A stretch of DNA of 50,615 bases from Actinomycetota bacterium (GCA_039029715.1 JBCCFN010000003.1:1-50615), one strand, 5' to 3'. Shown: positions 3,598-41,530, counted from the first letter of the stretch. Notes: generated by a model from the sequence alone, not told the origin. Numbers and translations are program-made.

Positions 3598-5256
3598 CTA
3601 CCGACCGGGCCGGAGCAGCTCTCGGAGCCGCTCGGCAGAATCCGGCCTGGCGAAGAGGAATCCCTGGAGCTGATCGACACCGAGCTCGGTCAGGATTCGG
3701 GCCTGCTCGGTGGTCTCCACGCCCTCGGCGACGACCGACATGCCGACGCTCTTGGCCAGGGCGACGATGGCGGAGACGATCTTGCGGTCGACCTCGTCGT
3801 CAGCGATCCCCTCGACGAAAAGCCGGTCGATCTTGAGGGTCGAGACCATGGCCAGCTTCTTCAGCTGGCTGAGCGACGCCTGACTGGTCCCGAAGTCGTC
3901 GATGGCCAAACGGACCCCGAGCAGATCGAGCTGGCGGAGCACGACCAGCGAGCGATCCAGCCGCTCCATGATCAGTTCCTCGGTGATCTCGAGCTCCAGC
4001 TGACGAGGCAACAGCCCGGTGTTGGCCAGGACCCTGGTCACGGTGTCGATCAGGTTGAGGTCCATCAGCTGCCGCTCTGCGATGTTGACCGCCATCGAGA
4101 CCGGTCGACCGAACTCTTCGCTCCACCGGACCGCCTGACGGCAGGCCTCGGACAGGACCAGCTCACCGAGCTCGACCACGAGCAACGACTCCGCCGCGAC
4201 CGGAAGGAACGCCGATGGCAGGATCACGCCCCGGCGAGGGTGATTCCACCGGACCAACGCCTCGAATCGGCTCGGCTCGGTGTCGCCCCGATCGACGATC
4301 GGCTGGTAGTGGACCTCGATCTCGCCGTTCCGGATCCCCCACCGCAGCTCCTGCTCGAGCTCAAGCCGAGCGACTGCCTCGGCCCGCAGCTCTGCGTCGA
4401 AGACGGCGGCTCGCCCGCCCCCCTCCCCCTTGGCCTGGTACATGGCGGCATCGGCGTCGCGGAGCAGCTCCTCGGCGGTGGCCCCGACGGGGCCGATCAC
4501 CGAAGCGATCCCGATACTCCCGGACACGACCTGGGTCGAGCCGTCGGCCAGCACGGTCGGCTGATCGAGCGAGTCGTTGATTCGACCGGCCAGGATCTCC
4601 AGGTCTCGGACGGTCGGGAGGCTCGACGAGACGATGACGAACTCGTCCCCGCCGAACCGGCCGACCGAGTCGGTCGATCGAACCAGCGTGGCCAGGCGAT
4701 TGGCAACCACCCGCAGCACCTCGTCCCCGGCCTGATGACCGAGCGAATCGTTGATCACCTTGAGCCGATCGAGGTCGCAGAACAGGACCCCGAGCAGATC
4801 GTTTGGCCGCAGCTCGGCCAACCGTCGCTCGATGTCTGCGGTCAGGCCCTTCCGGTTGATCAAGCCCGTCAGCTCGTCGATGTGGGTCTCCCGCCGGATC
4901 CGGTCGACGTAGTGTCTGGTCACGACGTGGTCGCGGATGCTCCGGGAGAGCACGAGCACCGCCCCGCTGAGCAGCAGCCCCGACACCAGCGCAACCGACG
5001 AGCCGAGGTGGCCCTGTCCGGTTGACGACTCAAGGGTCCGCAGGCTTCGCCAGACGAAGCCAGACAGCAGGAGGGTGATGACCGCCAGGGGCGCCAGCGG
5101 GACCCGTTCCAGCACGATCCGGACCGGGTCGGCGCTCGGTGCGGCCGGTCCACCGACGGTTGGCGGCCCGGGGGCGACGATGGTCAGCGGCCCCCGCTCG
5201 GCCGGCACGACCGTGACACCGGACGGCGATTCACTGGCGTGCCGTGAGTGGACCAC
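3598..5256 (-). CDS. Membrane-bound diguanylate cyclase/phosphodiesterase (2 TM-GGDEF-EAL)
   Basis: Intact GGDEF with an RxxD I-site (RSTD) five residues upstream; EAL (FEALVRW), DDFGT, AEGVE and QGF motifs. Start uncertain; GTG 5256 chosen because it sits 6 nt after the sigma-28-like -10. Confidence 0.9.
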   Translation of the reverse strand: MVHSRHASESPSGVTVVPAERGPLTIVAPGPPTVGGPAAPSADPVRIVLERVPLAPLAVITLLLSGFVWRSLRTLESSTGQGHLGSSVALVSGLLLSGAVLVLSRSIRDHVVTRHYVDRIRRETHIDELTGLINRKGLTADIERRLAELRPNDLLGVLFCDLDRLKVINDSLGHQAGDEVLRVVANRLATLVRSTDSVGRFGGDEFVIVSSSLPTVRDLEILAGRINDSLDQPTVLADGSTQVVSGSIGIASVIGPVGATAEELLRDADAAMYQAKGEGGGRAAVFDAELRAEAVARLELEQELRWGIRNGEIEVHYQPIVDRGDTEPSRFEALVRWNHPRRGVILPSAFLPVAAESLLVVELGELVLSEACRQAVRWSEEFGRPVSMAVNIAERQLMDLNLIDTVTRVLANTGLLPRQLELEITEELIMERLDRSLVVLRQLDLLGVRLAIDDFGTSQASLSQLKKLAMVSTLKIDRLFVEGIADDEVDRKIVSAIVALAKSVGMSVVAEGVETTEQARILTELGVDQLQGFLFARPDSAERLRELLRPGR

Positions 5257-5262
5257 GCCTGC

Positions 5263-5289
5263 CCATCGGCCAGCCGGACCGGGAGTTGA
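5263..5289 (-). promoter_or_regulatory. Sigma-28 (FliA/WhiG)-like promoter of the GGDEF-EAL gene
   Basis: Minus strand reads TCAA-ctcccggtccggctg(15)-GCCGATGG, then 6 nt to GTG; resembles TAAA-N15-GCCGATAA. Confidence 0.55.
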
Positions 5290-5341
5290 CCACTCCGTGA
5301 AATCGGGCACCGGTCCGGTCGACGTTGCCGACCGAGTACAC

Positions 5342-5563
5342 CTAGGGGCCGGTGCTCGGTCGGATGTCGAACGCCTCCCAGCGCCCGGGGCCGCCGGGAC
5401 CGAGCCGAAAACGGACCGGGGCACCGGTCTCGATCCGCCTGGTTCCGTCTGCGATCGTGGTGCAGTGGAACGTCCACCGGGCGCCGGTGTCGTCGATCAC
5501 CTGGCCAAGACCGACCTCGGCATCGAAGCTGTCGACCCGGCCGTGGCGCTCGGCGACGATCAT
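5342..5563 (-). CDS. Small cold-shock/OB-fold domain protein
   Basis: 73 aa from ATG 5563; GRVDSFD...GLGQV...FHCTTI...GAPVRF matches a divergent CSD pattern. Confidence 0.7.
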   Translation of the reverse strand: MIVAERHGRVDSFDAEVGLGQVIDDTGARWTFHCTTIADGTRRIETGAPVRFRLGPGGPGRWEAFDIRPSTGP

Positions 5564-5570
5564 CGGCCGA

Positions 5571-6449
5571 TCAGGGGACGATCTTGGCCAGCGGCAACTC
5601 GATGATGTCCGAGGCGCCGGCGTCGCGGAGGTCCGGGATGAGGATGTTGATGTCCGACTTCGGCACCACGGTCTCGACTGCGAAGCCGGCACCACCGTGG
5701 AGCTCATTGACCGTCGGGGCCTTCATGGCCGGCAGCAGGCTGATGACCTTGTCCAGGGCGACCGCATCCTCGACGTTCAGCTTGACCAGCACCTTGGTCC
5801 TGGCGTCGAGCGCGCCGAGCAGCAGGGTCCGGAGCTGCTCCATGGCGTGGCGCTTGTCCGGATCGGCGTGGGAGGCCGGATTGGCAACCACCTCGGTGTA
5901 GCTGCTCATGATCGTGTCGATGATCCGCAGCCCGGCGGCTCGGAGGGCCCGACCGGTCTCGGTGATGTCGACCGCGACGTCGACGATGTCCGGGACCTTG
6001 GCCTCGGTGGCGCCGTAGGAGAGCCGGATGTCTGCCTCGACGCCGCGGTCGGCGAAGAACCGCCGGGTCAGGTTCGGGTACTCGGTGGAGACCTTCACCC
6101 CGGACGCCAGCTCAGACACCTCCTGGATCGGCGAGTCCTCGGGGACGGCGACCACGATCCGAACCGGGTTTGCCGTGGCCTTCGAGTACTTCAGCTCACC
6201 GAGGGAGACCACGTCACTGCTGGTTTCCTCGACCCAGTCCCGGCCCGTGATCCCGAGGTCGAACAGCCCGTCCGCCACGTAGGTCGGGATCTCCTGCGGA
6301 CGCAGGATCCGAACCCCGAGGACGCGGGGGTCGCGGATGGTGGCCTTGTAGTCGACGGCGGAGCTGCGCTTGACCGGCAGGTCGGCCGCCTCGAACAGCT
6401 CCAGGGTTGCCTTCTCCAGGGACCCCTTCGGCAAGACGAGATTCAGCAT
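5571..6449 (-). CDS. hisG: ATP phosphoribosyltransferase (long form)
   Basis: PKGSL, RPQEIP, DLGITGRDW, SYGATE and DITETGRAL motifs; C-terminal regulatory domain. Confidence 0.95.
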   Translation of the reverse strand: MLNLVLPKGSLEKATLELFEAADLPVKRSSAVDYKATIRDPRVLGVRILRPQEIPTYVADGLFDLGITGRDWVEETSSDVVSLGELKYSKATANPVRIVVAVPEDSPIQEVSELASGVKVSTEYPNLTRRFFADRGVEADIRLSYGATEAKVPDIVDVAVDITETGRALRAAGLRIIDTIMSSYTEVVANPASHADPDKRHAMEQLRTLLLGALDARTKVLVKLNVEDAVALDKVISLLPAMKAPTVNELHGGAGFAVETVVPKSDINILIPDLRDAGASDIIELPLAKIVP

Positions 6450-6511
6450 GCTTCCACGCTAGTGGCCGAGCAGCGGAATCCAGTCGGACACCGGTCACGC
6501 CCCGGCGACCG

Positions 6512-7798
6512 CTACTGGGCCGCAGCCGAGCCCTCGTCGAGGTCGAGCAGGTGCCCCATCCGCTGCTGTTTCGCCCGCAGGTAGGCGATGTTGTGAGCGT
6601 TCGGCTTGGTGTGGATCGGGACCCGATCGGTGATCTCGAGCCCGAACCCGTCCAGCCCGCCGAACTTGGACGGGTTGTTCGTCATCAACCGCATCGTGGT
6701 CACCCCGAGGTCGACCAGCATCTGGGCCCCGATGCCGTACTCCCGGCTGTCGGCCGGAAGGCCCTGTTGGAGGTTGGCGTCAACCGTGTCGAGACCCTGC
6801 TGTTGCAGCTCGTAGGCCCGGATCTTGTGGCCGAGACCGATTCCTCGGCCCTCGTGGCCACGAAGGTAGACGACCACCCCCTCGCCGGCCTCGGCGATCA
6901 TCTGCAGCGCCAGGTCCAGCTGGGGGCCACAGTCGCAGCGGAGCGATCCGAAGATGTCGCCGGTCAGGCACTCGCTGTGGACCCGGACCAGCACGTCCTC
7001 GCTCCCGGCGGGATCGCCCCTGACGAAGGCCACGTGCTCCTGGCCGTCGAGGACCGACTCGTACACGACCGACTGGAAGTCGCCGTGTGCGGTCGGGATC
7101 GTGGCCTCGGCCATCCGGACGACCAGCTTCTCGGTCCGTCGCCGATAGCGAACCAGGTCGGCGATCGAGATGAACACCAGGTCGTGTTCGGCGCAGAATT
7201 CGATCAGGTCCGGGACCCGGGCCATCGAGCCGTCCGGCTTCACGATCTCGCACAGCACGCCGGCCGGCCGCAACCCGGCCAGCTCGCACAGGTCGACGGC
7301 GGCCTCGGTGTGGCCGGCCCGCTTCAGCACGCCGCCGGGCCGGGCCCGGAGGGGGAAGATGTGGCCGGGCCGGGCGAAGTCGGCGGCCGAGGTGGTCGGA
7401 TCGCTGAGGGCTCGGATCGACAGGGCCCGGTCCTCGGCCGAGATCCCGGTGGTGGTCCCGTGGCGATAGTCGACGGTGACGGTGAACGCGGTCCGCATCG
7501 CTTCGGTGTTCTGGGCGACCATCAGCGGGAGGTCGAGCTGTTCGGCCCGCTCGTCCGAGATCGACGTGCAGATCACGCCGGAGGAGTGGTTGACGATGAA
7601 GGCGATCCGCTCCGCAGTCGCGAACTCGGCGGCCATGATCAGGTCACCTTCGTTCTCCCGGTCCTCGTCGTCGACAACGACGACCATCTCACCACGGCCG
7701 ATGGCGGCAATCGCCTCCTCGACCGTGTCGAACGGGCTGTCGCCGGCATCGCCGCCGGCGGTCTCATCGTGTCCGTTGGTTCCCATCGATCCACTCAT
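6512..7798 (-). CDS. ribBA: Bifunctional DHBP synthase / GTP cyclohydrolase II
   Basis: [32 protein letters not shown] and EGRGIGL motifs; ATGA overlap with ribE. Confidence 0.96.
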
Positions 7799-8382
7799 TC
7801 GCTTTCCTGGCCGAGGTGGCCGGCAAGCAGCCGCTCGGCGTACTTGGCCATCACATCGACCTCGATGTTGACCCGATCACCGGGGCCCTTGGTCCCCAAG
7901 GTCGTGACCTCTGCGGTGTGGGGGATCACGGCCACGGTGAACCCGTCGATCGCTGGATCGACCACGGTCAGGCTGATCCCGTCGACGGTGACCGAGCCCT
8001 TCTCCACCAGGTAGCGGTGCAGGGGCTCCGGGATCCGGACCTTCAGGTCGGGGGCCGGTGCAACGATCTCGCCGACTGCGTCGACGTGGCCCTGGACCAG
8101 GTGGCCGCCGAGGCGGTCGGCGAGGCGGACCGGGCGTTCCAGGTTGACCGGATCCCCATCGGCCAGGTCGCCGAGCTGGGTCCGGGCGTAGGACTCCTCG
8201 GTGACATCTGCGGCGAACCAGCCGTCGTCGAGGCTCCACTCGACCACGGTGAGGCAGCACCCGTTGACCGCGATCGAGGCGCCGAGCTCCACATCTTCGA
8301 GCACCCGCTTGCAGTTGAGCATCAAACGCTCACCGTCGCGGGATCGAACCGATCCGAGTTCTTCGACTATCCCTGTGAACAC
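7795..8382 (-). CDS. ribE: Riboflavin synthase
   Basis: [11 protein letters not shown]-terminus, [23 protein letters not shown]. Confidence 0.96.
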
Positions 8383-8475
8383 ACTCGACCTCGTCCATCG
8401 GTACCGGGCGCCGGAGCGGACACCCCGGGACCGACCGGTCGACCGATCCCGACCTCCCAGGGTAAGACGTCATCG

Positions 8476-8489
8476 TTGATTCAGGTCAA
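8476..8489. promoter_or_regulatory. Inverted repeat resembling an FNR-type operator (TTGAT-N4-GTCAA) upstream of ribE
   Basis: TTGATTCAGGTCAA matches TTGAT-N4-ATCAA at 9 of 10 positions, in an AT-richer part of the ribD-ribE gap. Confidence 0.35.
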
Positions 8490-8519
8490 ACCCCGTGGAT
8501 CGTGTGGTCATCGTCCATG

Positions 8520-9581
8520 TCACCCACCGTGTCCCCGGTGCGCCGGATCGATCGTGAGATCGAGACGAAGATCGCCGCCCAGTGGCGTGATCGCCTCGAT
8601 CCGACCCCGGGGCATCTCACCGATCGTGGCCGCTCCCCGGCCGGCGAACAGCGGTCGGCCGGCCTCGCCGCCCATCAGCGCCGGCGCCAGATAGACCACG
8701 TAGTGGTCGACGAGCCCCTCGTGGTGGAACCGACCGGCGACGGTGGCGCCGCCCTCGACCATCAGCTGGACCACCCCGCGCCGACCGAGCTCGTCCAGCA
8801 CCTCCGGCAGCGGCCCGGAGTACTCGAGGCAGGGGTGGATGGCGGCCTCCGGCGGAGCGGTCCCCAACACCACCCGAAGCGGTTCCCTGACCGGCTGACC
8901 ATCCGGAGCGATCACTCCTCGGACCGTCAGCCGCGGGTCGTCGTCACGGACGGTCCCGGCACCGACCAGGATGGCGTCCGACTCGGCCCGGAGCCGGTGG
9001 GCATCGGCTCGAGCCGCCTCGCCGGTGATCCACTGGCTTGTCCCGTCCGGTGCCGCGGTCCGGCCGTCGAGCGTGGCCGCCAGCTTCAGCACCACGTAGG
9101 GCCGGCCGGTCCGACGGTGGTGGAGGTACGGGGCGAGCTGGCGCTCGACCGCCTCGGCCCCTGGACCGACCGTGACCTCGATCCCGGCCTCCTCCAGGAT
9201 GGCAACGCCCCGGCCGGACACGTTGGGATCCGGGTCGAGGACGGCGACAACTACCCGGGCCACGCCTCCACCGACGATGGCCGTGGCGCAGGGGCCGGTC
9301 CGCCCCCGGTGGGCGCAGGGCTCGAGCGTGGTGTAGAGGGTGGCCCCGGCCGCCCGGTCCCCGGCCAGTCGGAGCGCCACCCGTTCGGCATGCTCCCCGC
9401 CCGGTCGCCTGGTCGACCCGGGAAACGAGACCCCGTCAGGCGTGACCACCAGCGCACCGACCCACGGGTTCGGCGGGGCCAGCAGCCTGGCGTGGTCGGC
9501 GGCGGCGATGGCCCGGGCCATGAGCGCCTCATCGTCCGGGCGGTGGTCGTCTGCGACCACCGAGGCGGCGGTCGAGGTCAA
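8520..9581 (-). CDS. ribD: Bifunctional pyrimidine deaminase/reductase
   Basis: PNPWVG, HAE, TLEPCAHRGRTGPC, SQWITG, DDPRLTVR and VEGG motifs. TTG 9581 overlaps the mog stop (TTGA). Confidence 0.93.
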   Translation of the reverse strand: MTSTAASVVADDHRPDDEALMARAIAAADHARLLAPPNPWVGALVVTPDGVSFPGSTRRPGGEHAERVALRLAGDRAAGATLYTTLEPCAHRGRTGPCATAIVGGGVARVVVAVLDPDPNVSGRGVAILEEAGIEVTVGPGAEAVERQLAPYLHHRRTGRPYVVLKLAATLDGRTAAPDGTSQWITGEAARADAHRLRAESDAILVGAGTVRDDDPRLTVRGVIAPDGQPVREPLRVVLGTAPPEAAIHPCLEYSGPLPEVLDELGRRGVVQLMVEGGATVAGRFHHEGLVDHYVVYLAPALMGGEAGRPLFAGRGAATIGEMPRGRIEAITPLGGDLRLDLTIDPAHRGHGG

Positions 9582-10084: not shown

Positions 10085-10190
10085 GGCCCCAGTGTGCCGC
10101 TCCGACGAGGCGTTCGGGCGATGGTTCCAAGTAGCCTGTGGTCTGCTTCGAGGTCAGCCTCTGCCGCCAACGACACCCGGAACCATCGCC

Positions 10191-23320: not shown

Positions 23321-23605
23321 TCAGGCGGCGCTGTCGTCGTCTGGGTCCGCCGCCTCGGCCTCCGGCCGGACCGGCACGATCTTGTCCGCAGCGATCTCTT
23401 CGAAGGCGATGGACAGCGGCTTGCGGGCCACCGAGGTCACCTGCGGCGGGACCATGGCCCCGAGCCCCTCACCGAGCTGGCCGAAATAGGCGTTGATCTG
23501 CCGGGCCCGGATGCTGGCCAGCGTGCAGAGCCCGAACTTGGAGTCCGTCCGATCGAGCAGCTCCTCGATCTGGGGGGTCATCATCGTGTCGTACTGATCG
23601 GCCAT
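23321..23605 (-). CDS. rpoZ: RNA polymerase omega subunit
   Basis: SKF.L...RARQIN and KPLSIAFEEI motifs; GGAGGT SD; gmk-rpoZ-coaBC synteny. A housekeeping -10 (TACACT) also lies just upstream. Confidence 0.95.
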   Translation of the reverse strand: MADQYDTMMTPQIEELLDRTDSKFGLCTLASIRARQINAYFGQLGEGLGAMVPPQVTSVARKPLSIAFEEIAADKIVPVRPEAEAADPDDDSAA

Positions 23606-23662
23606 GGCGGCGTACCTCCGGGGTCGAAGTGTACCGGAAACCGGTCTGGCAACCGTGCCTCC

Positions 23663-23689
23663 CCATCGGCCGACGGGCCGGTTCGATGA
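23663..23689 (-). promoter_or_regulatory. Sigma-28-like promoter upstream of rpoZ
   Basis: Minus strand reads TCAT-cgaaccggcccgtcg(15)-GCCGATGG in the gmk-rpoZ gap. Confidence 0.4.
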
Positions 23690-29646: not shown

Positions 29647-30870
29647 TCAGACCTCCCCCGCCTCGTCGGCGGTCATGCGGTCGGTCGCCGGGGCGATGCC
29701 GACCCCAAGCCGCTCGGCGAATCGTTCGAACAGGTGGGCGGCGTCGTGGGGACCGGGCGACGCCTCCGGATGGTGCTGGACGCTGAACGCCGAGGCTGCG
29801 CCGTCCGCAACCGTGACCTCCATGCCCTGGCAGACCCCGTCGTTCAGGTTGATGTGGGTCACCTCGGCCAGGCCGGCGAGCGAGGCCGGATCGACCGCGA
29901 AGTTGTGGTTCTGGCTGGTGATCTCCACCCCGCCGGTCGTCTCGTCCCGGACCGGATGGTTGGCCCCGTGGTGGCCGAACGGCAGCTTCACGATCCGGGC
30001 CCCGATGGCCAGGCTGAGGATCTGGTGGCCGAGGCAGATCCCGAAGATCGGGACCTTCCCCAGCAGCTCCCGGACCGTTGCCACCGCATACGGCACCTCG
30101 GTGGGGTCACCGGGACCGTTCGACAGGAAGACCCCGTCCGGGTTGCGGGCCAGGACGTCTGCCGCCGTGGTCGAGGCCGGCACGACCTCGACATCGCCGA
30201 TGCGGCTCAGATGATCGAGGATCCGCCGCTTGATCCCGAAGTCGAAGGCCACGATCTACGGGGACGGCCCGGGCCCGGGGACGACGTGGGCGACCCGGTA
30301 CGGCACCTCGGTGGTGACCTCGGCAACCAGATCGATCCCGTCGGTGCCCGACTCTGCGGCCGCAGCGGCGGTGATCGTCGCCAGGTCGAACCCGCCCGGC
30401 CCCTCGACCGGTCCGAACGCCCCGGGCATCGCCCCGTGGTCCCGGATGATCCTGGTCAGGCGGCGGGTGTCCAGCCCGGCGATCCCGGCCATGCCAGTCG
30501 CCAGCAGGAACCCCTGGAGCGACTCCTCGGCCCGCCAGTTGGAGTGGCGGCGGGCCAGATCCCGGACGATGACCCCGCGGGCGAACGTGGTCCGGGACTC
30601 CGAGTCACCGGGGGTGGCCCCGTAGTTCCCGATGTGGGGGTAGGTGAACGTGATGATCTGACCGGCGTAGGACGGGTCGGTCAGGATCTCCTGGTAGCCG
30701 GTCAGGGCCGTGTTGAACACGACCTCGCCGGAGGCCGGGGTCTGGGGCACGGCGCCGATGTGCTCGCCCTCGAAGACCGAGCCGTCAGCCAGGACCAGTG
30801 CCGCGGCCGCCGGGGCAGGTCCGCCGTCTGCGACCCCGGCCGTGCCGGCGTCGATCGTCCGGCCGCTCAT
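29647..30870 (-). pseudogene. carA: Carbamoyl-phosphate synthase small subunit interrupted by an in-frame TAG at 30256-30258 (nonsense allele, split gene or sequencing error)
   Basis: ATG 30870 overlaps the pyrC stop. The N-domain (GEVVFNT, TDPSY) and GATase domain (DFGIK, SNGPGDP, GICLGHQ, HPE) are in the same frame, joined by ...CCG TAG ATC GTG GCC TTC GAC. Confidence 0.8.
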
Positions 30871-32165
30871 CGGACCGCCATCCCGTCGATCACCACCGGT
30901 TCGCCTTGATACATGGTGTGTCTCACCTTCCCTCTGACCTCCCGGCCGTGGAATGGGGTGTTGGAACTGCGGCTCGCCTGCTGCGCTCGATCGATCGTCC
31001 ACACGTGGTCGAGGTCGACGACGGCCAGATTGGCCGGTCGGCCGACCTCGATCGGACCGCCGTGGCGGTCAGACAAGCCGGCGATGCGGGCCGGCGAGGT
31101 GGACAGCAGCGTCACCAGGTCGGCCAGCGGCAGGTCGAGCTCGGTGTTGGCAAGCGCGAAGGCGGACTCGAGGCCGAGCACGCCGGGGGGCGCCTTATCG
31201 AAGGGCAGCTCCTTCGAGTCCGGCGTGTGGGGGGCGTGGTCGGTTGCGATGGCATCGATGGTCCCATCACGCAGGCCGTTCCGGATCGCTTCGACATCCC
31301 CTGCGGTCCGCAGCGGCGGGTAGACCTTGAACACCGGGTCGTAAGACGCACACGCCGCGTCGGTCAGGCTGAAGTGGTGGGGCGTGGCCTCGGCGGTGAC
31401 CGGATGCCCCTCGGCCTTGGCCGCCCGAACCAGGGCCACGCTGCCGGCCGTCGACAGATGCTGGAGGTGGACCCGGACGCCGGTCAGGCGGGACAGGGCG
31501 ATGTCACGGGCAACCATCAGCTCCTCGGCCTCGGCCGGCTGGCCGGCCAGCCCCAGGCGTGACGACCAGGCCCCTTCGTGCATGACGCCACCCTGGGACA
31601 GGGCGGTGACCTCGCAATGCTGGGACAGGACGACCGGGCCACCCTCGTCGGTCACCATCGACCCGGCGTACTCCAGGGCCCGGCGCATCATCTGGGCGTC
31701 CTGGACCCCGGTCCCGTCGTCGGTGAACATCCGGACGCCGAGGTCGACCAGCTCCCCGATCGGCGACAGCGTCTGGCCGGCCTGCCCGACCGTGATGGCG
31801 GCCGATGGCTTGACCTCGCAGAGGGCGCCCCGGGCGTGGTCGAGTACCTCGCTGACCACCGCGGCGGAGTCCATGCAGGGGGTCGTGTTCGGCATGGCGA
31901 CCACAGCGGTGAATCCACCGAGGGCGGCGGCCCGACTCCCGGAGGCCACCGTCTCGGCCGCCTCGTTGCCCGGCTGTCGCAGCTGGGCATGGAGATCGAC
32001 GAAGCCGGGGACGACGTGGCAGCCCTCGGCATCGAGGGTCCGGTCGGCCTGGGCGCCGTCACCGATGGTGGTGATCCGACCGGTGGCGTCATCGACGACG
32101 ACATCGGTTCGCCGCTCGCCGGATGCGTCGAGCACGATCCCGCCGGTGATGGCGATCCTGGTCAT
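30867..32165 (-). CDS. pyrC: Dihydroorotase (type I), with a substituted metal ligand
   Basis: GGFT...MPNT, FTDDG, HCE and TDHAPH motifs, but DLHAQLR replaces HxH. ATG 32165 overlaps the pyrB stop. Confidence 0.9.
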   Translation of the reverse strand: MTRIAITGGIVLDASGERRTDVVVDDATGRITTIGDGAQADRTLDAEGCHVVPGFVDLHAQLRQPGNEAAETVASGSRAAALGGFTAVVAMPNTTPCMDSAAVVSEVLDHARGALCEVKPSAAITVGQAGQTLSPIGELVDLGVRMFTDDGTGVQDAQMMRRALEYAGSMVTDEGGPVVLSQHCEVTALSQGGVMHEGAWSSRLGLAGQPAEAEELMVARDIALSRLTGVRVHLQHLSTAGSVALVRAAKAEGHPVTAEATPHHFSLTDAACASYDPVFKVYPPLRTAGDVEAIRNGLRDGTIDAIATDHAPHTPDSKELPFDKAPPGVLGLESAFALANTELDLPLADLVTLLSTSPARIAGLSDRHGGPIEVGRPANLAVVDLDHVWTIDRAQQASRSSNTPFHGREVRGKVRHTMYQGEPVVIDGMAVR

Positions 32166-33782: not shown

Positions 33783-33836
33783 GCGACACCGGGCCCGGCG
33801 CGCGCCGACCAGGGCGCGATTACCCGGGGTCGGTCG

Positions 33837-34694: not shown

Positions 34695-34737
34695 GCCCGA
34701 AGCGTAGGGAAGTGGCCGGGCCCGGTCGAGCCGACGC

Positions 34738-35820
34738 TCAGCGGCCGAGATCGCCGACCGTCGCCTCGGTGGCCCGGAACGCCAGGCGGATCGGATCGAT
34801 CGGCAGCCCGTTGCGTCGCCCCGGCCGGTCGGCCATGGCGGTGACGGTGTAGGCGAAGGTCGTCTCAACGCCGTCGACGACGACACCGGCGACCTGGATC
34901 CGATAGTCGAGGTCCGAGTCGGCATCGGTCCGGCCCGGGAGCGAGCCCTCCACCGGCTCCCACACGATGATCGGCGCCGGCACGTACCCCTGCTGGCTCA
35001 GCCGGGCCACGACCTCGAGCTCGACGGTGCGGCCGCCACTCGTCATCGTGACCTCGGCATCCTCGAAGTCGGCGCCGGCGAGCCCGAACGACCAGCGGGG
35101 GTGGATCAGCTCGGCCGGCACGTAGCCCCGGGGCGGCCAGGCCACGAAGCCGGCGTCCTCCCGGACCGGAGGGTTGTCGTCGAACACGCCCTCGTCGAAC
35201 ACCCACAGCGCATTGGCCGGGTAGGCCTGGTCGGTGCCGGCGACGTGACCGACACCGATCTCGGTGGTCGGCGGATGGAGGATCGTGTTGCGGTGGCCGA
35301 CATCACGGTTCCGGTCGCCCGGATCTTCGATGTAGCCATCGATGGCGGCCGGCCCGGTCCGGCCGAGATAGAGGTTGCTGTTGGCGGCAGCGGCGATCGC
35401 ATCGTCACTCAGGCACAGGAAGCTGTCGTCCGGGGTGTGGCTGAGGCGTCCGGTTGCGCTCATCGAGAGGGCGCCGGCCTGGGCCCGGGCCGAGTACTCC
35501 CGGTTGAGCGTGACCCCCGTTGGCACACCGGCCATGGCCCGGTAGAAGTTGACCCGCCGGACGGTTGCCAACGCCAGGTCCTCGGAGCTGCCACCGGGAT
35601 CGCAACCGTCGTAGGCCCCGGTCCAGTCCATGTCCGGCACCGTCCTGGCGAACTCCTCGGCATAGGCGATGGCCACCGCCTCACGGTTCGAGGTGTCGAT
35701 CCACGGCTCGACCACCGTGCCGGCCTGGGACGGCGTGCCGCCGACCAGGGAGACGACGGTCAGCGCGAAGACGGTGGCGGCCAGGGCGAGGCGTGACCGG
35801 AGGCGGCGGGGCACCGCCAT
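34738..35820 (-). CDS. Secreted CAP (SCP/PR-1) domain protein
   Basis: Signal peptide, VNFYRAMAG, LSH, SNL and GHRNTIL CAP motifs. The true start may be GTG 35814. Confidence 0.8.
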   Translation of the reverse strand: MAVPRRLRSRLALAATVFALTVVSLVGGTPSQAGTVVEPWIDTSNREAVAIAYAEEFARTVPDMDWTGAYDGCDPGGSSEDLALATVRRVNFYRAMAGVPTGVTLNREYSARAQAGALSMSATGRLSHTPDDSFLCLSDDAIAAAANSNLYLGRTGPAAIDGYIEDPGDRNRDVGHRNTILHPPTTEIGVGHVAGTDQAYPANALWVFDEGVFDDNPPVREDAGFVAWPPRGYVPAELIHPRWSFGLAGADFEDAEVTMTSGGRTVELEVVARLSQQGYVPAPIIVWEPVEGSLPGRTDADSDLDYRIQVAGVVVDGVETTFAYTVTAMADRPGRRNGLPIDPIRLAFRATEATVGDLGR

Positions 35821-35848
35821 CCATCGGCATCACCACCGCCCGATGTGA
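35821..35848 (-). promoter_or_regulatory. Sigma-28-like promoter candidate of the CAP gene
   Basis: TCAC-N16-GCCGATGG, then exactly 6 nt to in-frame GTG 35814; same -10-to-start geometry as the GGDEF-EAL gene. Confidence 0.35.
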
Positions 35849-35861
35849 GGACGGGGGTCGA

Positions 35862-36281: not shown

Positions 36282-36308
36282 CGGCCGCCAGGCCGGTGCC
36301 GAGGACCC

Positions 36309-36872
36309 TCAGGCCCGGGTCTGGTATTCACCGGTCCTGGTGTCGACCTTGACCCGGTCGCCTGGTTCGACGAACAGTGGCACCTGGATGACCAGCCCGG
36401 TCTCCAACGTCGCCGGCTTGCGGGCCCCCGAGACCCGGTCCCCCTGTACGCCCGGCTCGGTCTCGGTAATCGCCAACTCGACCGAGGCCGGCAGGTCGGT
36501 TCCGATGATCTCGTCGCCGTACATCAGGAACGTCACCGAGGTGCCCTCGGTGACGTAGTTCCCGGCCTCCCCCATCGACTCGGACGGGACCGTCGACTGC
36601 TCGAAGGTCTCGTTGTCCATGACGGCGTAGCCGTCGCCGTCCCGGTAGAGGTACTGCTGGTCCCGCTTCTCGATGAAGGCGCTCTCGACCTTCTCACCGG
36701 CCCGGAAGGTCCGGTCGACCACCGACCCGGTCCGAACGTTTCGCAGGGTGGTCCGGACGAAGGCGCCGCCCTTGCCCGGCTTCACGTGCTGGAACTCCTG
36801 GAGCTGGAACAGCCCGTCGGACAGTTCCATGTGCATGCCGTTCTTGAAATCGCTGGTGCTGATGGTTGCCAT
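36309..36872 (-). CDS. efp: Elongation factor P
   Basis: HVKPGKGGAFVR, QYLY, PGVQGD, KPATLETG and VPLFV motifs. Confidence 0.97.
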   Translation of the reverse strand: MATISTSDFKNGMHMELSDGLFQLQEFQHVKPGKGGAFVRTTLRNVRTGSVVDRTFRAGEKVESAFIEKRDQQYLYRDGDGYAVMDNETFEQSTVPSESMGEAGNYVTEGTSVTFLMYGDEIIGTDLPASVELAITETEPGVQGDRVSGARKPATLETGLVIQVPLFVEPGDRVKVDTRTGEYQTRA

Positions 36873-36912
36873 GAGTCGGTGCCTGCTTCTGTTTCGACGT
36901 GCCGGATCCCGG

Positions 36913-38022
36913 TCACCGGCAGGCGACGTTTGGATCCTTCGGGCTGTGGGTCAGGGTCTCGCAGCCGGAGTCCGTCACCACCACCGAGTCCTCGACGCGG
37001 ATCCCGCCGAGGTCCGGCAGGTACGCACCGGGCTCGACGGTGACCACATAGCCCGTGCGGAGGATACCGGTCGCCCGGGTCGACAAGATGGGGTTCTCAT
37101 GAATCTCCAGGCCGATCCCATGACCGGTCCCGTGGATGAACGCCTCGGCCAGGCCATGGTCGGCCAGCCGGTCCCGGCAGGCCCGGTCGATCTCCCGCTC
37201 CGCAACGCCGTCGGCCACCGCCGCCACCCCGGCGGCCTGGGCATCGGCGACGGCCTCATAGATCTCCCGCTGCCTGGCATCCGCGGCCCCGATCAGGAAG
37301 CTCCGGGTCATGTCCGAGCCGTAGCCGTCGACCGACGCCCCGAAGTCGATCACCACCATGTCGCCATCGGCGATGACCCGGTCGCTCGGCCTGGCATGGG
37401 GCTTTGCACTGTTCGGCCCCGCGGCAACGATCGTGGGGAAGCTCGGTCCGTCCGCTCCCCCGTCGACCATGGCCCGATCCAGCCGGGTCGCCACCTCGGC
37501 CTCGGTCAACCCGGTCCCCAGCTCGCCGATCACCTCGGCCAATGCGGCGTCCGCGATGGCGGCGGCCGCCCGGAGCCGGTCGATCTCGCCGGCGTCCTTG
37601 ACCCGGCGCTCGGTCTCGACCAGTTGCTCGGTTGCAATGAGCGCCCGGCCGTCGAGCCATCGCTCGAACCGGCGGACCTCGGCCCACGTGACGTGCTCGG
37701 ACTCGAGCCCGACCGAGTCGGCCCCGGCCACCGCCGCCACCACCGGGGCTTCCGGCTCCCTGGTGATCGCCACCTCGGCCTCGACCGAGGCCGCAGCCAG
37801 CTGCTCCCGCACCTGGGTCTGGTATCGCTGGTCGGTCACCAGAGCCAGGCGGTCCGGTCCGATCACGATCAGCCCGGCCGAGCCGGTGAAGCCGGTCAAC
37901 CACCGGATGTTGACCGCCTTGGTCACCACCAGTGCATCGCAGCCGACACCGACCATGGCCGACCGAACGCGGCGGAGCCGTTCGTTTCGATCCATCGGCG
38001 CCAGCGGCCGATCCGGGCTCAC
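36913..38022 (-). CDS. Xaa-Pro aminopeptidase (M24B, PepP/PepQ-like)
   Basis: Creatinase-N domain, DFG...[22 protein letters not shown] and GIRVED motifs. Confidence 0.93.
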
Positions 38023-39578
38023 GGCGTCACCGACACCATCGCCGCCTCCAAGACGGCCCGATCGTCGACCCGGACCGGTTCCACCCCGTCCGGGCCGTCA
38101 AGCACGAAGGTGATCCCGTCGATCGCCTTCTTGTCCCGGGAGAACAGGTCGATCAGCATCCCGTGGTCCATCCCGGCGGGGATGGTCCCGTCCAGGCCGT
38201 AGGCGGCCACGACCCGACGATGCTCGTCGACCCGAGCGGCGTCGATCCGGCCAAGCCGCCGACCGAGCTCGGCCGCATAGATCAGGCCGATCCCGACCGC
38301 CTCGCCGTGTCGGAGGTCGTAGCCCCCGGCGGTCTCGAGTGCATGGGCCAGCGTGTGGCCGTAGTTCAGGATGGCCCGACGACCGCCCTCACGCTCGTCC
38401 CCGGCGACCACATCGGCCTTGATCCGGACCGAGCGGGCCACCCGCTCGACCAGCTCCACCTCATCGAGGCGGCCGCCGCCGAGGAAGTGGTACTTGGCGA
38501 GCTCCCCCATGCCGCTTCGGAACTCCCGCGGCGACAGCGTGGCCAGGGTGTCGACATCGCACACCACGGCCGCCGGCTGCCAGAACGCCCCGACCAGGTT
38601 CTTGCCCTCGGGGAGATTCACGCCGGTCTTGCCGCCGATGGCGGCATCGATCTGCCCCAACAGGGTGGTCGACACGTGCACCACCGGGATGCCCCGGTGG
38701 TAGCTGGCGGCGACGAAGCCGGCCAGGTCTGACACCACCCCACCCCCGACCGAGACCACGCAGTCGGCCCGGGTCATGCCCCAGGCAGCGAACTGGGAGG
38801 CCAGGGAGCCGACGACATCCAGCCGTTTCGCAGCCTCGCCGTCCTCGACGGTGAACACCCGCTGCTCCCGGCCGCTGTCGACCTCGACCCCGATCCCCGG
38901 TTGGGTCACGATGGCGACCCGGGACGCCCGATCGGGGACCAGGTCTGGTAGGTGCCCAAGCACGCCTCGACCGACCACCACCGGGTAGGTCCGGCCGTCG
39001 GCGAGGGCCACCTCCTCGACCCGGGGCGCGGCGTCTCGACCGGGGAAGGTTGCGACTCCATCGACGATGGCCGCCGCAACCTCGGCCGCGGTACGACCGG
39101 CGGTCTGGATGATCAGGTCCGCTGCGGCGGTGTAGTGGACCAACCGGTCCCGTCGCAGCGTGCGAAGACGAGCGCCGGCCGCCTCGGCTCCCCCGGTGCC
39201 GTCACCGGCCAGCAGCGGACGGCCGGTGGCCGCCCCGAGCCGGGCCGACAGCTCGTCGTCCGGCGCATCGAGCCAGACCGTTACCGCCCGGTCTGCCAGC
39301 AGCGCTCGATTCTCCGGCCGCACCACCAGACCGCCACCACCATCGACGATCACGTCGGGCTCGGCTTCGAGGGCCCGGGCGAGCAACCGGTGTTCGAGCT
39401 CCCGGAACCGCCCCTCACCGTCGGTGGCGAACAGCTCGGGGATCGATCGGCCGGCCTCGGCTTCGATCGCAGCGTCCAGTCCCACCACCGGGCGGCCGGT
39501 GGCGCGGCCACGCTGCTCGGCAGCAGACGACTTCCCGGCGCCGGGGAGGCCGATGAGAACCAGAGGAGTAGTCATCAC
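38019..39578 (-). CDS. aroKB: Fused shikimate kinase / 3-dehydroquinate synthase
   Basis: AroK: GLPGAGKS, GE..FRELE, GGG, RPLL. AroB: GGGVVSD, DAAIGGKTG, KNLVG, NYGHT, HGEAV. One continuous 519-codon frame. Confidence 0.9.
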   Translation of the reverse strand: MMTTPLVLIGLPGAGKSSAAEQRGRATGRPVVGLDAAIEAEAGRSIPELFATDGEGRFRELEHRLLARALEAEPDVIVDGGGGLVVRPENRALLADRAVTVWLDAPDDELSARLGAATGRPLLAGDGTGGAEAAGARLRTLRRDRLVHYTAAADLIIQTAGRTAAEVAAAIVDGVATFPGRDAAPRVEEVALADGRTYPVVVGRGVLGHLPDLVPDRASRVAIVTQPGIGVEVDSGREQRVFTVEDGEAAKRLDVVGSLASQFAAWGMTRADCVVSVGGGVVSDLAGFVAASYHRGIPVVHVSTTLLGQIDAAIGGKTGVNLPEGKNLVGAFWQPAAVVCDVDTLATLSPREFRSGMGELAKYHFLGGGRLDEVELVERVARSVRIKADVVAGDEREGGRRAILNYGHTLAHALETAGGYDLRHGEAVGIGLIYAAELGRRLGRIDAARVDEHRRVVAAYGLDGTIPAGMDHGMLIDLFSRDKKAIDGITFVLDGPDGVEPVRVDDRAVLEAAMVSVTP

Positions 39579-39618
39579 CTCGATCGTACCGGCGGTGTGA
39601 ACCGCCGGATCGGTGGCG

Positions 39619-40398
39619 CTAGAGCCGAACGGTGTCGATCACGGCGCCGGAGACGACGACGACGGCCAGGGTTGCGGTTGCCAGGGCTGGACCGAACGGG
39701 ATCTCGGCCCGCCCTCGTCGCCGGATCAGGTTGTAGACGATCCCGCCGACCGCCCCGCCGACCAGGGCGATCAGGATGGTGATGAGGACCAGTCGGGTCG
39801 TGTCGACCAGGCCCGGCTGGAGCCAGCCGATGAACAAGCCGAGGGTCATGGAGAGCTTCACGTCCCCCCGACCCATCCCCTGCTCGTGGGCCAGGTGGGC
39901 CAGCCCGATGAAGCCGGTGAAGACCGCAGCACCGACCAGGGCCGAGGTGATCCCGGCCGCATAGTCCCGCTGCCCGGAGACCACCAGGACGACGAACAAC
40001 CCGGCGAGGAAGGCGGGCCAGGTGATGATGTTCGGCAACAGGTGGGTCTCGGCGTCGATGGCGGACAGCACGATCAGGATCGCAGCGAGCCCCAGGTAGG
40101 GGATCAGCAGCCAGCCGGAGCCGAACCGCAATCCCATCATGGCGAACACCAGGGCGGTGGCACCATCGACCAGCGGGTAGCGAAGACCCTTGTGGGCCCC
40201 GCACGACCAGCAGCGGTCGAACCACGAGCGGACCGGGATGAGTGATCGCCGTCCGATGGCGGCGCTGCAGGTGGTGCAGCGGTGGGTCGGCCGGAGCGGC
40301 AGCCGCTCGACGGTGCGGTCGACCAGGATGCCGAGCACCGGGCCGATGACGAGCCCGAGAGCCAGCAGGCCCACGGACATCGCAATCGACCCGGTCAT
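39619..40398 (-). CDS. pilD: Type IV prepilin peptidase (A24)
   Basis: CxxC...CxxC, ID...LP and GMGRGDVKL aspartate motifs, IPFGP; multiple TM helices. Confidence 0.88.
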   Translation of the reverse strand: MTGSIAMSVGLLALGLVIGPVLGILVDRTVERLPLRPTHRCTTCSAAIGRRSLIPVRSWFDRCWSCGAHKGLRYPLVDGATALVFAMMGLRFGSGWLLIPYLGLAAILIVLSAIDAETHLLPNIITWPAFLAGLFVVLVVSGQRDYAAGITSALVGAAVFTGFIGLAHLAHEQGMGRGDVKLSMTLGLFIGWLQPGLVDTTRLVLITILIALVGGAVGGIVYNLIRRRGRAEIPFGPALATATLAVVVVSGAVIDTVRL

Positions 40399-40401
40399 CG
40401 G

Positions 40402-41448
40402 TCAGTCGTCGTTCTTGCGGTAGCGGGCGAGCAGCCCACCGCTCTTTGCCGTCTCGGAGTCGTCGACCAGTGCGGACAGGTCGTCGACCGAGGCGCCGAA
40501 GTCCGAGATCTCGGCCGGCGACGGCGGGGTGTCGGGGGTGCCGGCGGAATCGTCCTCGCTCAGCTCGGCCGCGGTCGGGGCCGGCGGCATCGGCGGCCGG
40601 TCGGTTGCGGACTCGGCGGTGGTCGCCTCGGTCTCGGCCGGGGCGGTCGTCGGCTCGGGCTCGGCGGTGGCGGCGGCGCCCTCGGACATGGCCTCGATCG
40701 ACAGCAGACCTGCGGACAGCGAGTCGTCGGTGAGCGCACCCATCAGGGCGGCGTCGCCGAGCTCGGTGGCGGCCGGCATGCCGGGGGCGGCAGCGATCGG
40801 ATCCGGCTCGCCGGCGGGACCGGTCGGCATCTCGAATGCGGGTGTTGACTCGGTCGCGGTCGGGCTGAGCGACTCCGAGGCCCGGGCCATGGATGCGATC
40901 CCAGTGGTCGGCTCGGACACGCTCACCAGCTGGCGTTCGGCAAGCAGCTTGATCTGGCGGCTGCCCTCGACCTCGCCCAGTTCCAGTGCCTGGCAGACCT
41001 GGGAGGCCGGGCAGCCGGAGGCGACGACGGTCAGGACCGCCCACTCGGCGCGATTGATGCTGACCTCGTCCGCCGGGAGATCGGCCGACGGGGCGACGTG
41101 GTGGTCGAGGCTCGGGACGACGGCCTCGATCTGACGCCAGTCGGCCAGCCGGTTCTCGGCCGCGGCCAGGACCTTGGCCACGATCTGGGGGCTGTCCCCC
41201 TCGCCGACCTCGCGGTTGGTGAAGGTGAACGTCCCGTCGCCGTACCGCAGGAGCTCGAACATCACGTCCTCGACCTCGGTGCCGTTGGCGGTGTGGCTCG
41301 CCGTGCCGTCGACCAGACGCCCCTCGTTGAACATCAACGAGCCGGTGCCCCGGTCGCCGCTGATCTCGAGCTGACCGGTCTTGTTGGTGCTGGACAGCAG
41401 TCCGAGTACCTCGTCGAGCGCAAAGTTTTCAAGCGAACCTTGCAGCAT
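40402..41448 (-). CDS. DUF4388 / PATAN-domain protein with a long acidic, low-complexity tail
   Basis: MLQGSLENFALDEVLGLLS...KTG.L...G.F.F N-terminus, wHTH-like middle, disordered P/A/E/T-rich C-terminus; AGGAGG SD. Confidence 0.8.
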   Translation of the reverse strand: MLQGSLENFALDEVLGLLSSTNKTGQLEISGDRGTGSLMFNEGRLVDGTASHTANGTEVEDVMFELLRYGDGTFTFTNREVGEGDSPQIVAKVLAAAENRLADWRQIEAVVPSLDHHVAPSADLPADEVSINRAEWAVLTVVASGCPASQVCQALELGEVEGSRQIKLLAERQLVSVSEPTTGIASMARASESLSPTATESTPAFEMPTGPAGEPDPIAAAPGMPAATELGDAALMGALTDDSLSAGLLSIEAMSEGAAATAEPEPTTAPAETEATTAESATDRPPMPPAPTAAELSEDDSAGTPDTPPSPAEISDFGASVDDLSALVDDSETAKSGGLLARYRKNDD

Positions 41449-41503
41449 CCTGCAACCTCCTGTCGCCGCCCGACGACCGGACGGGTGTCTCTGTACCCAG
41501 TCC

Positions 41504-41530
41504 TCTTCGGAAGATTGCGACAGGAGTTGA
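41504..41530 (-). promoter_or_regulatory. Sigma-28-like promoter of DUF4388-pilD
   Basis: TCAA-ctcctgtcgcaatct(15)-TCCGAAGA; shares TCAACTCC with the GGDEF-EAL promoter. Confidence 0.5.

Follow-up and report, generated by a model that had tools for sequence, protein, structure and literature searches.

The classical FliA/SigD regulon of late flagellar and chemotaxis genes is read from promoters of the form TAAA-N15-GCCGATAA. The promoters analysed here, from an uncultured Actinomycetota bacterium, resemble it in promoter geometry and in having MCP, motor-switch and cheY-type targets, but differ in a -10 tail of GG rather than AA (in a 70% GC genome), in the many c-di-GMP enzymes among the targets, in flagellin promoters that lack the main form, and in that no FlgM was found in this 77.6% complete genome. 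With the Streptomyces WhiG-RsiG sporulation switch (PDB 6pfj, 6pfv) the genome shares an orthologous sigma factor (E 5.6e-89), the anti-sigma factor (E 2.3e-13) and the same whiG neighbourhood, although the targets here are not sporulation genes.

Another parallel is the unicellular Rubrobacter radiotolerans, in which the (RsiG)2-(c-di-GMP)2-WhiG regulon has sigma-28-type promoters before pilus and DGC/PDE genes (PMC8325347). WhiG and RsiG are likewise both encoded here; unlike in R. radiotolerans, RsiG is of the twin-motif type, flagella and two further sigma-28 paralogs are encoded, the -35 element is mostly TCA and not TAA, and no pil cluster but Tad genes and a PATAN-prepilin-peptidase operon provide the link to pili. 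For Actinomycetota at large, a preprint gives two consensus forms, T(A/C)AA-N16-GCCGA and CTCA-N16-17-GCCGA, with an invariant CGA core, and predicts WhiG1/WhiG2 regulons in which c-di-GMP metabolism is the most widespread function, next to chemotaxis, flagellar and type IV pilus genes (bioRxiv 10.64898/2026.01.14.699351). Both forms and the target classes match those found here; the sites here are backed by a spacing control and ortholog footprinting, whereas the preprint regulons were predicted by pattern matching alone. Acidimicrobiia, leaderless starts, prepilin peptidase and PATAN did not turn up in a search of the preprint's main text. The explanation that we favour, and hold to be quite probable, is that three of four predicted sites, those upstream of a GGDEF-EAL gene, a CAP gene and a DUF4388-pilD operon, work as promoters read by a sigma-28-family factor within a genome-wide regulon, with WhiG as the likeliest reader, and that the fourth, upstream of rpoZ, stands apart.

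Four sigma-28-like sites in the window

The window is the whole stretch of 50,615 nt that was analysed (Actinomycetota bacterium, GCA_039029715.1 JBCCFN010000003.1:1-50615; contig C3), with genes called by a home-made caller. The relevant features are given below, with promoter scores from a matrix trained without this contig.

3598..5256, minus: GGDEF-EAL protein, 552 aa from GTG (Pfam, NCBIfam, translation)
5254..5256, minus: GTG start, predicted +1 of a leaderless mRNA, 9 nt after GCCGA
5263..5289, minus: predicted sigma-28/WhiG-type promoter of the GGDEF-EAL gene, TCAA-N15-GCCGATGG (5289-5263), TCAA at 5289-5286 as -35 and GCCGATGG at 5270-5263 as -10; score 20.6
23321..23605, minus: rpoZ (Pfam PF01192)
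23628..23633, minus: TACACT, a TANNNT element of the housekeeping -10 type, with the rpoZ ATG 28 nt downstream
23663..23689, minus: sigma-28-like match upstream of rpoZ, TCAT-N15-GCCGATGG (23689-23663); score 17.1; not conserved
34738..35814, minus: secreted CAP-domain protein (Pfam PF00188, translation)
35812..35814, minus: GTG start of the CAP gene, predicted leaderless +1, 9 nt after GCCGA
35821..35848, minus: predicted sigma-28/WhiG-type promoter of the CAP gene, TCAC-N16-GCCGATGG (35848-35821), with the preceding base CTCAC-N16-GCCGATGG; score 17.1
39619..40398, minus: prepilin peptidase (A24 plus A24_N, Pfam), 3 nt downstream of DUF4388
40402..41448, minus: DUF4388 (PATAN-type) protein, 348 aa (Pfam PF14332, E 6e-14, translation)
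41449..41497, minus: predicted 5' UTR (about 50-60 nt from a predicted transcription start) that includes the ribosome-binding site AGGAGG
41504..41530, minus: predicted sigma-28/WhiG-type promoter of the DUF4388-pilD operon, TCAA-N15-TCCGAAGA (41530-41504), with CTCAACTCC ... TCCGAAGA; score 16.2

Direct reading of the DNA returned the four minus-strand sites exactly as the original prediction had placed them, together with the 8-mer that it had described as common to the GGDEF-EAL and DUF4388-pilD sites (TCAACTCC) and the in-frame GTG codons 6 nt past the octamer at the GGDEF-EAL and CAP genes (5256-5254 and 35814-35812). All four sites are intergenic, on the strand of the gene and less than 200 bp upstream of the start codon; GCCGA and the start codon are separated by 9 nt for GGDEF-EAL, 58 nt for DUF4388, 60 nt for rpoZ and 9 nt for CAP. 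Pfam searches of the downstream genes gave GGDEF plus EAL, DUF4388 followed by the A24 prepilin peptidase, CAP and RpoZ. By the -35/-10 rule of the preprint, the CAP site is CTCA-N17-GCCGA, and CTCA-N16-TCCGA at DUF4388 departs from it by a single mismatch, which is permitted; the GGDEF-EAL site has TCAA with N15, the published spacing minus one base, or equivalently GTCA-N16-GCCGA, and the rpoZ site (GTCA / TCAT) does not satisfy the exact -35 rule.

Base composition gives some ground for regarding the window sites as chance matches of a GC-rich motif that have no promoter function, given that the window contains 15 copies of GCCGATGG and that GCCGA is common in this 70% GC DNA. Non-coding DNA makes up 6.4% of window bases and holds four of the nine loose-pattern matches (P=0.0016), and at a matrix score of at least 16 about 0.03 matches would be expected by chance in this contig, which has 25 upstream regions; four were observed.

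A promoter class across the genome

The genome scan covered 3148 upstream regions, with wrong spacings as the control. The untrained pattern TCA-Nk-GCCGA matched 44 times with k=16 and 31 times with k=17, as against 8-24 (about 15) at 16 other spacings, and CTCA-Nk-GCCGA gave 24 and 13 as against 0-7. The excess over chance thus depends on spacing and peaks only at k=16/17, as expected of sigma-28 promoters. With the held-out matrix, 68 regions scored at least 15 (7.5 expected), 60 at least 16 (4.25 at wrong spacings) and 47 at least 17 (1.5 expected). Because the matrix was seeded from the pattern of the original prediction itself, this search had no means of arriving at another motif. The sharp spacing peak and the matrix excess mark the motif as a real promoter class. 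The GGDEF-EAL, DUF4388-pilD and CAP sites, of local consensus cTCAac-N15/16-GCCGATgg, all score above 16, where 60 matches stand against an expectation of 4.25, which speaks against a chance origin, and the GGDEF-EAL promoter ranks seventh among all upstream regions.

The leaderless geometry noted at two window genes proved to be a feature of the class at large. At 21 of the 68 sites GCCGA is followed, 9-10 nt on, by an in-frame ATG or GTG, compared with 9 of 438 wrong-spacer controls, and because of this position the predicted transcription starts imply leaderless mRNAs for about one third of the class, the GGDEF-EAL and CAP genes included. In this third of the class, transcription would begin 6-7 nt past the -10 octamer, at the start codon itself, while the DUF4388-pilD transcript would have a leader that is about 55 nt long and contains a Shine-Dalgarno site.

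Among the 60 target genes scanned were eight with GGDEF and/or EAL domains, two HD_5 and six MCP genes, as well as FliM, one REC-only (cheY-like) protein, DUF4388, Tad and WhiB. GGDEF genes are enriched (8 of 15 are targets, 0.32 expected, P=1.8e-10), as are chemoreceptors (5 of 11, 0.24 expected, P=1.7e-6). The motif stands upstream of a Tad pilus gene and of both DUF4388 genes, the second and only other one being on contig C190. The genome is flagellated; its two high-GC flagellin genes have no TCA form within 260 nt, and one has only TAA-N16-GCCGA at -126. The proposal of a c-di-GMP/pilus regulon embedded in a housekeeping region therefore stands in its first part, in that a sigma-28/WhiG-type regulon exists, made up mainly of genes for c-di-GMP enzymes and chemoreceptors and of flagellar or Tad genes, and falls in its second, since the motif predicts roughly 55-60 promoters across the genome and nothing ties the regulon to this region in particular.

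Conservation of the individual sites

The comparison set consisted of 25 genus-level genomes of uncultured Acidimicrobiales. Ortholog alignment supported the motif at three of the four window loci, with variable spacers and with wrong-spacer controls of 2.25-4.0. Downstream of hisG, T[CA]A-N16-GCCGA is present at 18/18 GGDEF-EAL loci, followed by a GTG at a distance of 9 nt in 4/18 and of 10 nt in 10/18; the protein has a membrane N-terminus, an RxxD site and intact GGDEF and EAL motifs. Upstream of the CAP gene, T[CTA]A-N16/17-G[CT]CGAT[AG]G was found at 24/25 loci (4.0 at wrong spacers) and the GTG at 9 nt is kept in all 23 relatives with sequence available. The CAP ortholog, which encodes a signal peptide followed by the CAP domain, lies downstream of nusB in 24/25 genomes. 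An additional ATG (35820) abuts the CAP octamer in this genome alone and is absent from the relatives.

At DUF4388, CT[CT]AA.TC-N-[GT]CCGAA is present at 22/23 loci as against 2.25 at wrong spacers, and the 105 nt upstream of the ATG contain no TANNNT conserved among the genus loci. The 5' UTR has blocks conserved among relatives and gave no match in an Rfam search. The DUF4388 protein ends in an acidic, low-complexity tail, and pilD follows its gene in 17 of 23 related loci; the two genes are likely on one transcript.

The proposed membership of rpoZ did not survive this comparison. A relaxed motif was found at just 6/22 loci (3.25 at wrong spacers), in the closest relative (G008) TGG replaces TCA, and TA.[AG][CG]T is present in 19/19 loci with the rpoZ start located, in 15 of them as exactly TATACT. 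The non-conserved motif and the conserved TATACT-type -10 argue against the site as the main promoter of rpoZ; most likely it is a non-functional or minor match, with rpoZ predicted to be served by the conserved promoter. A chance match therefore suits this site. For the other three, retention of the motif in 18/18, 22/23 and 24/25 relatives across variable spacers, and the fixed start-codon distance, leave a chance origin highly improbable. On this comparative evidence, the GGDEF-EAL, DUF4388-pilD and CAP sites would be genuine, conserved sigma-28/WhiG-type promoters and the rpoZ site is probably unused.

Candidate sigma factors and proposed control

The sigma and anti-sigma genes that the original prediction called for were in part found: a WhiG ortholog and an RsiG homolog are encoded, and no FlgM homolog was detected in the available assembly. 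The WhiG ortholog (contig C62) scores 350.5 bits with NF004935 (cut-off 343), matches PDB 6pfj_A, and lies in a Streptomyces-like neighbourhood, dprA-whiG-M23-rpsB-tsf-pyrH-frr. The RsiG homolog (C74) aligns full length with 6pfj_T (residues 18-189) and with Rubrobacter RsiG at E 1.2e-4 (7lq4); of its two c-di-GMP motifs, E(X)3S(X)2R(X)3Q(X)3D, the first is intact and the second reads E..S..R...H...D, with H for the conserved Q. There are three sigma-28-family paralogs (C62, C39 and C25), and because of this WhiG-RsiG is only the best inference as reader of the window promoters.

One alternative is that the paralog in the flagellar cluster (C25, beside flhA, flgN and flgK) reads them, in an ordinary late-flagellar/chemotaxis regulon without RsiG/c-di-GMP gating. 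The genome is indeed flagellated, and the motif occurs at MCP, fliM and cheY-like genes. Moreover, CTCA goes with a non-T at -10 position 6 in 16/18 sites (P=0.02), and the DUF4388 promoter, CTCA-N16-[GT]CCGAA, resembles the CTCA/GCCGAACT form of flagellar WhiG1, although the preprint describes the two query forms as overlapping and inseparable (bioRxiv 10.64898/2026.01.14.699351). The 1.2 Mb scanned of the non-flagellated, closed genome G007 showed no peak in the raw spacing scan and had just five sites with a matrix score of at least 16 (1.0 expected), about a third of the site density; the bulk of the large regulon therefore goes together with flagella and chemotaxis and might be under the flagellar sigma factor. 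Against this alternative, the C25 protein falls below the FliA/WhiG cut-off (163.5 vs 189.6), and genomes in which no FlhA was found still have the three window promoters. FlhA was found in just 16/25 genus genomes, and in the nine others the motif is present at DUF4388 in 8/9, at CAP in 8/9 and at GGDEF-EAL in 4/4 examined (including G007), with only two sigma-28-like genes in eight of the nine. This persistence argues against the flagellar sigma factor as the sole predicted reader, and we consider the alternative unlikely.

The third paralog (C39) might read the promoters instead, with WhiG-RsiG controlling something else. It belongs to the FliA/WhiG subfamily (195 bits, above the TIGR02479 cut-off), WhiG and FliA are the closest relatives with a solved structure, and its type is present in 25/25 genus genomes, as is WhiG (RsiG, 23/25); a weak match (13.8) lies upstream of the C39 gene itself. 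Its identity to WhiG is only 36-39%, however, and the documented specificity that matches the motif is that of WhiG (PMC8325347; bioRxiv 10.64898/2026.01.14.699351). In addition, whiG itself has CTCAC-N15-[GTA]CCGA at about 112-118 nt upstream in 25/25 genomes. We regard a C39-type reader as slightly less probable still than the flagellar one. The motif upstream of whiG fits autoregulation, as has been reported for WhiG of some species (bioRxiv 10.64898/2026.01.14.699351); another regulator could explain the conservation, because the conserved stretch extends well beyond the motif.

With the WhiG ortholog as the likeliest reader, the RsiG homolog would, as in the homologous systems of Streptomyces and Rubrobacter, sequester WhiG at high c-di-GMP, and the regulon genes would be switched on as c-di-GMP falls. 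The WhiG-dependent GGDEF/EAL enzymes may in turn feed back on the c-di-GMP signal, and in members with flagella, this genome among them, the paralog from the flagellar cluster may read these promoters as well.

Promoter motif and start-codon geometry in the source genome

The window spans the whole of the 50.6-kb contig C3 from an assembly of 5.28 Mb in 501 contigs (about 70% GC; 77.6% complete and about 5% contaminated), and the relatives of its source genome (G000) are uncultured Acidimicrobiales MAGs. Nearly all of its genes are encoded on the minus strand, in a housekeeping run (alaS, mltG, aroE, aroK-aroB, pepQ, efp, nusB, pyrR to pyrF, gmk, rpoZ, coaBC, metK, priA, fmt, rib genes and hisG). 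Scattered within this run are genes for a GGDEF-EAL protein and a CAP-domain protein, and a DUF4388 (PATAN-type) gene with a prepilin peptidase gene 3 nt downstream of it. The four sigma-28-like sites of the original prediction, upstream of these genes and of rpoZ, were re-read and match exactly, including the shared TCAACTCC, and the in-frame GTGs at 5256 and 35814, 6 nt past the octamer (the -10 element containing GCCGA), are present as claimed.

Genes were called with a home-made codon-usage model trained on G000 itself (4815 genes, 90.4% of the assembly), and the test set consisted of 3148 intergenic regions upstream of genes, each read in the direction of its gene; a motif count across the whole unannotated genome was dominated by codon periodicity and was left out as a test. 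In an untrained scan of these regions, TCA-Nk-GCCGA gave 44 matches at k=16 and 31 at k=17, as compared with 8-24 at the sixteen other spacings (8 to 25), and CTCA-Nk-GCCGA gave 24 and 13 matches, respectively, as compared with 0-7 elsewhere. A compact matrix of 8 + 9 positions was then used, seeded from the originally predicted pattern and trained with contig C3 held out; it replaced an earlier wide matrix with the window's own sites in training and long flanks, which had put the CAP site low (12.6). The compact matrix gave 68 matches at scores of at least 15, 60 at 16 and 47 at 17, against 7.5, 4.25 and 1.5 expected from wrong spacers, i.e., the same motif halves at other -35/-10 distances. 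The local consensus was c-TCA-a-[c/g]-t ... g-[G/A]CCGA-T-g-g, and the GCCGATGG of the original prediction is therefore this organism's version of GCCGATAA.

Sites in the window with their held-out matrix scores
5289-5263, minus strand: site upstream of the GGDEF-EAL gene, 20.6 (rank 7)
23689-23663, minus strand: site upstream of rpoZ, 17.1
35848-35821, minus strand: site upstream of the CAP gene, 17.1
41530-41504, minus strand: site upstream of the DUF4388 gene, 16.2

Four sites scoring at least 16 on this contig compare with about 0.6 predicted from the genome mean (60 in 5.28 Mb), a local excess of roughly six-fold for which no reason is apparent.

An in-frame start codon was found 9 or 10 nt past GCCGA (6-7 nt past the octamer) at 21/68 sites against 9/438 wrong-spacer controls, so that the start-codon spacing originally noted at the GGDEF-EAL and CAP genes, both with GTG at 9 nt past GCCGA, proved to be a feature of the entire class. 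This is where, relative to the -10 element, a sigma-28 transcript would be expected to begin, and in actinobacteria the translation of mRNAs that start with AUG or GUG needs no leader. Across the genus, the CAP GTG lies exactly 9 nt past the core in 23/23 loci, an ATG at 35820 being found in this genome alone, while for GGDEF-EAL the distance to the start codon is 9 nt in 4/18 loci and 10 nt in 10/18. The predicted start codons of both genes are corrected by this sequence-based analysis. A literature search at the level of listed entries returned no paper on leaderless sigma-28 promoters, and the term ‘leaderless’ is absent from PMC8325347 and from the main text of bioRxiv 10.64898/2026.01.14.699351.

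Two further features of the housekeeping run were noted, and Rfam gave no family at gathering score in the window. The carA gene carries an in-frame TAG at 30256-30258 (minus strand), exactly in its interdomain linker, which may reflect a split gene, a sequencing error or stop-codon read-through:
30256-31002, minus strand: CPSase small-chain domain of carA
29647-30252, minus strand: glutamine amidotransferase domain of carA
A single 519-aa ORF (38019-39578, minus strand) encodes both shikimate kinase and 3-dehydroquinate synthase as a fusion. In many actinobacteria a chorismate synthase gene usually lies between pilD and aroK, and the window has none between them.

Conservation of the sites across the genus

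The housekeeping gene upstream of each target served as query to collect orthologous loci from another 24 genomes of the genus, the downstream ortholog was checked, and the relaxed pattern T[ACT]A-N16/17-[GTA][CT]CGA was counted against wrong spacers.

Loci with the relaxed pattern and wrong-spacer control; the genomes are related and hence not independent observations
hisG to GGDEF-EAL: 18/18 loci; control 2.5
aroE to DUF4388: 22/23 loci; control 2.25
nusB to CAP: 24/25 loci; control 4.0
gmk to rpoZ: 6/22 loci; control 3.25

At the first three loci, the genomes differ in the sequence of the spacer but retain the -35 triplet, the spacing and the CCGA core; TAA or TTA also occurs as the -35 in relatives, in which the CAP -10 is GCCGATAG, nearer the textbook form, and no conserved TANNNT element was found upstream of DUF4388 in the genus loci. 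Together, the spacing peak, the 60 matches against 4.25 at scores of at least 16 and the conservation at these three loci bear out the predicted sigma-28/WhiG-type promoter class.

The comparison of orthologous loci did not uphold the fourth predicted target, rpoZ. A TATACT-type hexamer stands upstream of rpoZ in 19/19 loci with the start located (here TACACT, 23633-23628, minus strand), and only G000 and two other genomes of the genus (G009 and G010) have a complete sigma-28-like match. Because of these two results rpoZ was rejected as a regulon member, a decision that we consider likely to be right.

The leader that separates the ATG of DUF4388 from its promoter (55-70 nt; window 41449-41503 and the related loci L102-L124) has blocks conserved genus-wide, in one clade, e.g., ggtgtagtcatgctttcg ... 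gcgggcgcgatgaggaagga. This stretch, for which Rfam gave no family with E of at most 1, may be a regulatory leader.

Target genes and relation to known regulons

Pfam analysis of 60 genes downstream of sites, all outside the window, identified eight proteins with GGDEF and/or EAL domains, two with HD_5 (HD-GYP-like), six chemoreceptors, FliM, a single-domain receiver protein, the only other DUF4388 protein in the genome, a TadE/G-like protein, WhiB, a sortase, an M23 peptidase and others, with 12 genes lacking a family. A site scoring at least 15 was present at 8 of the 15 GGDEF genes with an upstream region (19 in the genome; 0.32 expected, P=1.8e-10), at 5 of the 11 such chemoreceptor genes (12 in the genome; 0.24 expected, P=1.7e-6) and at both DUF4388 genes of the genome. 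G000 is flagellated, having flhA, fliP, fliQ, fliM, fliN, motA, motB, flgK, flgN and four flagellin-type genes. One flagellin gene (C34:1-500) lies in DNA that is markedly AT-rich, unlike the remaining genome, and its contig may be contamination.

A broad type IV pilus regulon was considered and is unsupported. Four contigs carry T2SSE ATPases, and a relaxed match was found at only one, at the Tad/Flp cluster C183:440-6200 (cpaB, tadZ-like, tadA, tadB, tadC), where TAA-N16-GCCGA lies 18 nt upstream of cpaB, while the upstream regions of the ATPase operons on C161, C68 and C58 had no match. A TadG-like gene on contig C361 has a strong site with predicted leaderless geometry.

In Rubrobacter, 12 mapped promoters cover pil genes and DGC/PDE genes, and a twin-motif RsiG has been noted in Acidimicrobiales (PMC8325347); of the target classes in predicted WhiG1/WhiG2 regulons across Actinomycetota, c-di-GMP metabolism is found most widely (bioRxiv 10.64898/2026.01.14.699351). 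In its promoter forms and target classes, the regulon described here matches both the Rubrobacter regulon (PMC8325347) and the predicted WhiG1 and WhiG2 regulons (bioRxiv 10.64898/2026.01.14.699351). Ours is thus a known kind of regulon and not a new kind, and a well-supported new case of it: a sigma-28/WhiG regulon backed by statistical controls and phylogenetic footprinting in an uncultured genus of Acidimicrobiales, where the association of c-di-GMP enzymes with WhiG that has been reported also holds (8/15 GGDEF genes). By term search, Acidimicrobiia, leaderless starts, prepilin peptidase and PATAN are absent from the main text of the survey (bioRxiv 10.64898/2026.01.14.699351), to which our analysis adds as conserved targets the PATAN-prepilin-peptidase operon and the secreted CAP protein with its GTG fixed 9 nt past the -10 core.

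Sigma factors and candidate readers of the promoters

G000 has three sigma-28-family genes. The gene on C62, in the context dprA-whiG-M23-rpsB-tsf-pyrH-frr, encodes the WhiG ortholog (WhiG equivalog model 350.5 bits, cut-off 343; S. venezuelae WhiG, 6pfj, E 5.6e-89), that on C25 lies between flhA and flgN-flgK and is under the family cut-off, and that on C39 just passed the FliA/WhiG subfamily model. A 197-aa protein encoded on C74 aligns over its full length to S. venezuelae RsiG (6pfj_T, E 2.3e-13), and also to Rubrobacter RsiG, with c-di-GMP motif 1 intact and H for Q in motif 2. A search of the 77.6%-complete genome for FlgM (PF04316), also named in the original prediction, was negative. 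Upstream of whiG itself, CTCAC-N15-[GTA]CCGA occurs at -109 to -118 in 25/25 genomes, which is consistent with autoregulation.

The WhiG ortholog is present in 25/25 genus genomes, RsiG in 23/25 and FlhA in 16/25; FlhA was not found in the other nine (completeness 88-96%), among them G007, a closed genome in one contig. Given that the motif is kept in the FlhA-less genomes at DUF4388 (8/9), CAP (8/9) and GGDEF-EAL (4/4 examined), the flagellar sigma is unlikely to be the only factor that reads these three promoters. For G007, the scan of raw spacings over the first 1.2 Mb gave no peak, and the matrix gave 5 sites there scoring at least 16 against 1.0 expected, a density about one third of that in G000; among them are the sites of a GGDEF-EAL gene with a predicted leaderless start and of an Exo_endo_phos gene, whose family is represented among the G000 targets as well. 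This sparseness argues that most of the large regulon travels with the motility genes, and it counts against a simple picture. A paralog of the C39 type, present in 25/25 genus genomes, is a further possible reader. A split of the sites into WhiG1-like and WhiG2-like showed a weak association (P=0.02, uncorrected), insufficient to assign sigmas, and pattern search alone is, according to the survey authors, unable to separate the regulons of two sigma paralogs (bioRxiv 10.64898/2026.01.14.699351). The flagellated and non-flagellated species of this one genus are a natural comparison that could separate them.

We tentatively propose, as a reading with somewhat less than an even chance, a promoter code common to a c-di-GMP-gated WhiG and the flagellar sigma, with a flagella-independent core and additions in flagellated species. 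The core would be kept in all genus members, would be read by WhiG under RsiG/c-di-GMP control and would comprise whiG itself, the hisG-linked GGDEF-EAL gene, PATAN-PilD, the leaderless secreted CAP protein and further DGC/PDEs, and in flagellated species chemoreceptors and motor genes would be put under the same code. If true, a self-referential loop between c-di-GMP and the sigma would enclose half of the cell's c-di-GMP enzymes, and leaderless mRNA would account for a third of the regulon.

The region upstream of whiG (whiG at C62 9558-10334, minus strand; loci L267-L291) is conserved far past the sigma-28-like motif (CTCACtTTgTGTGG ... CCGACGGAGAGTGGG, 22/25 genomes), pointing to a site for a further regulator or to a structured leader.
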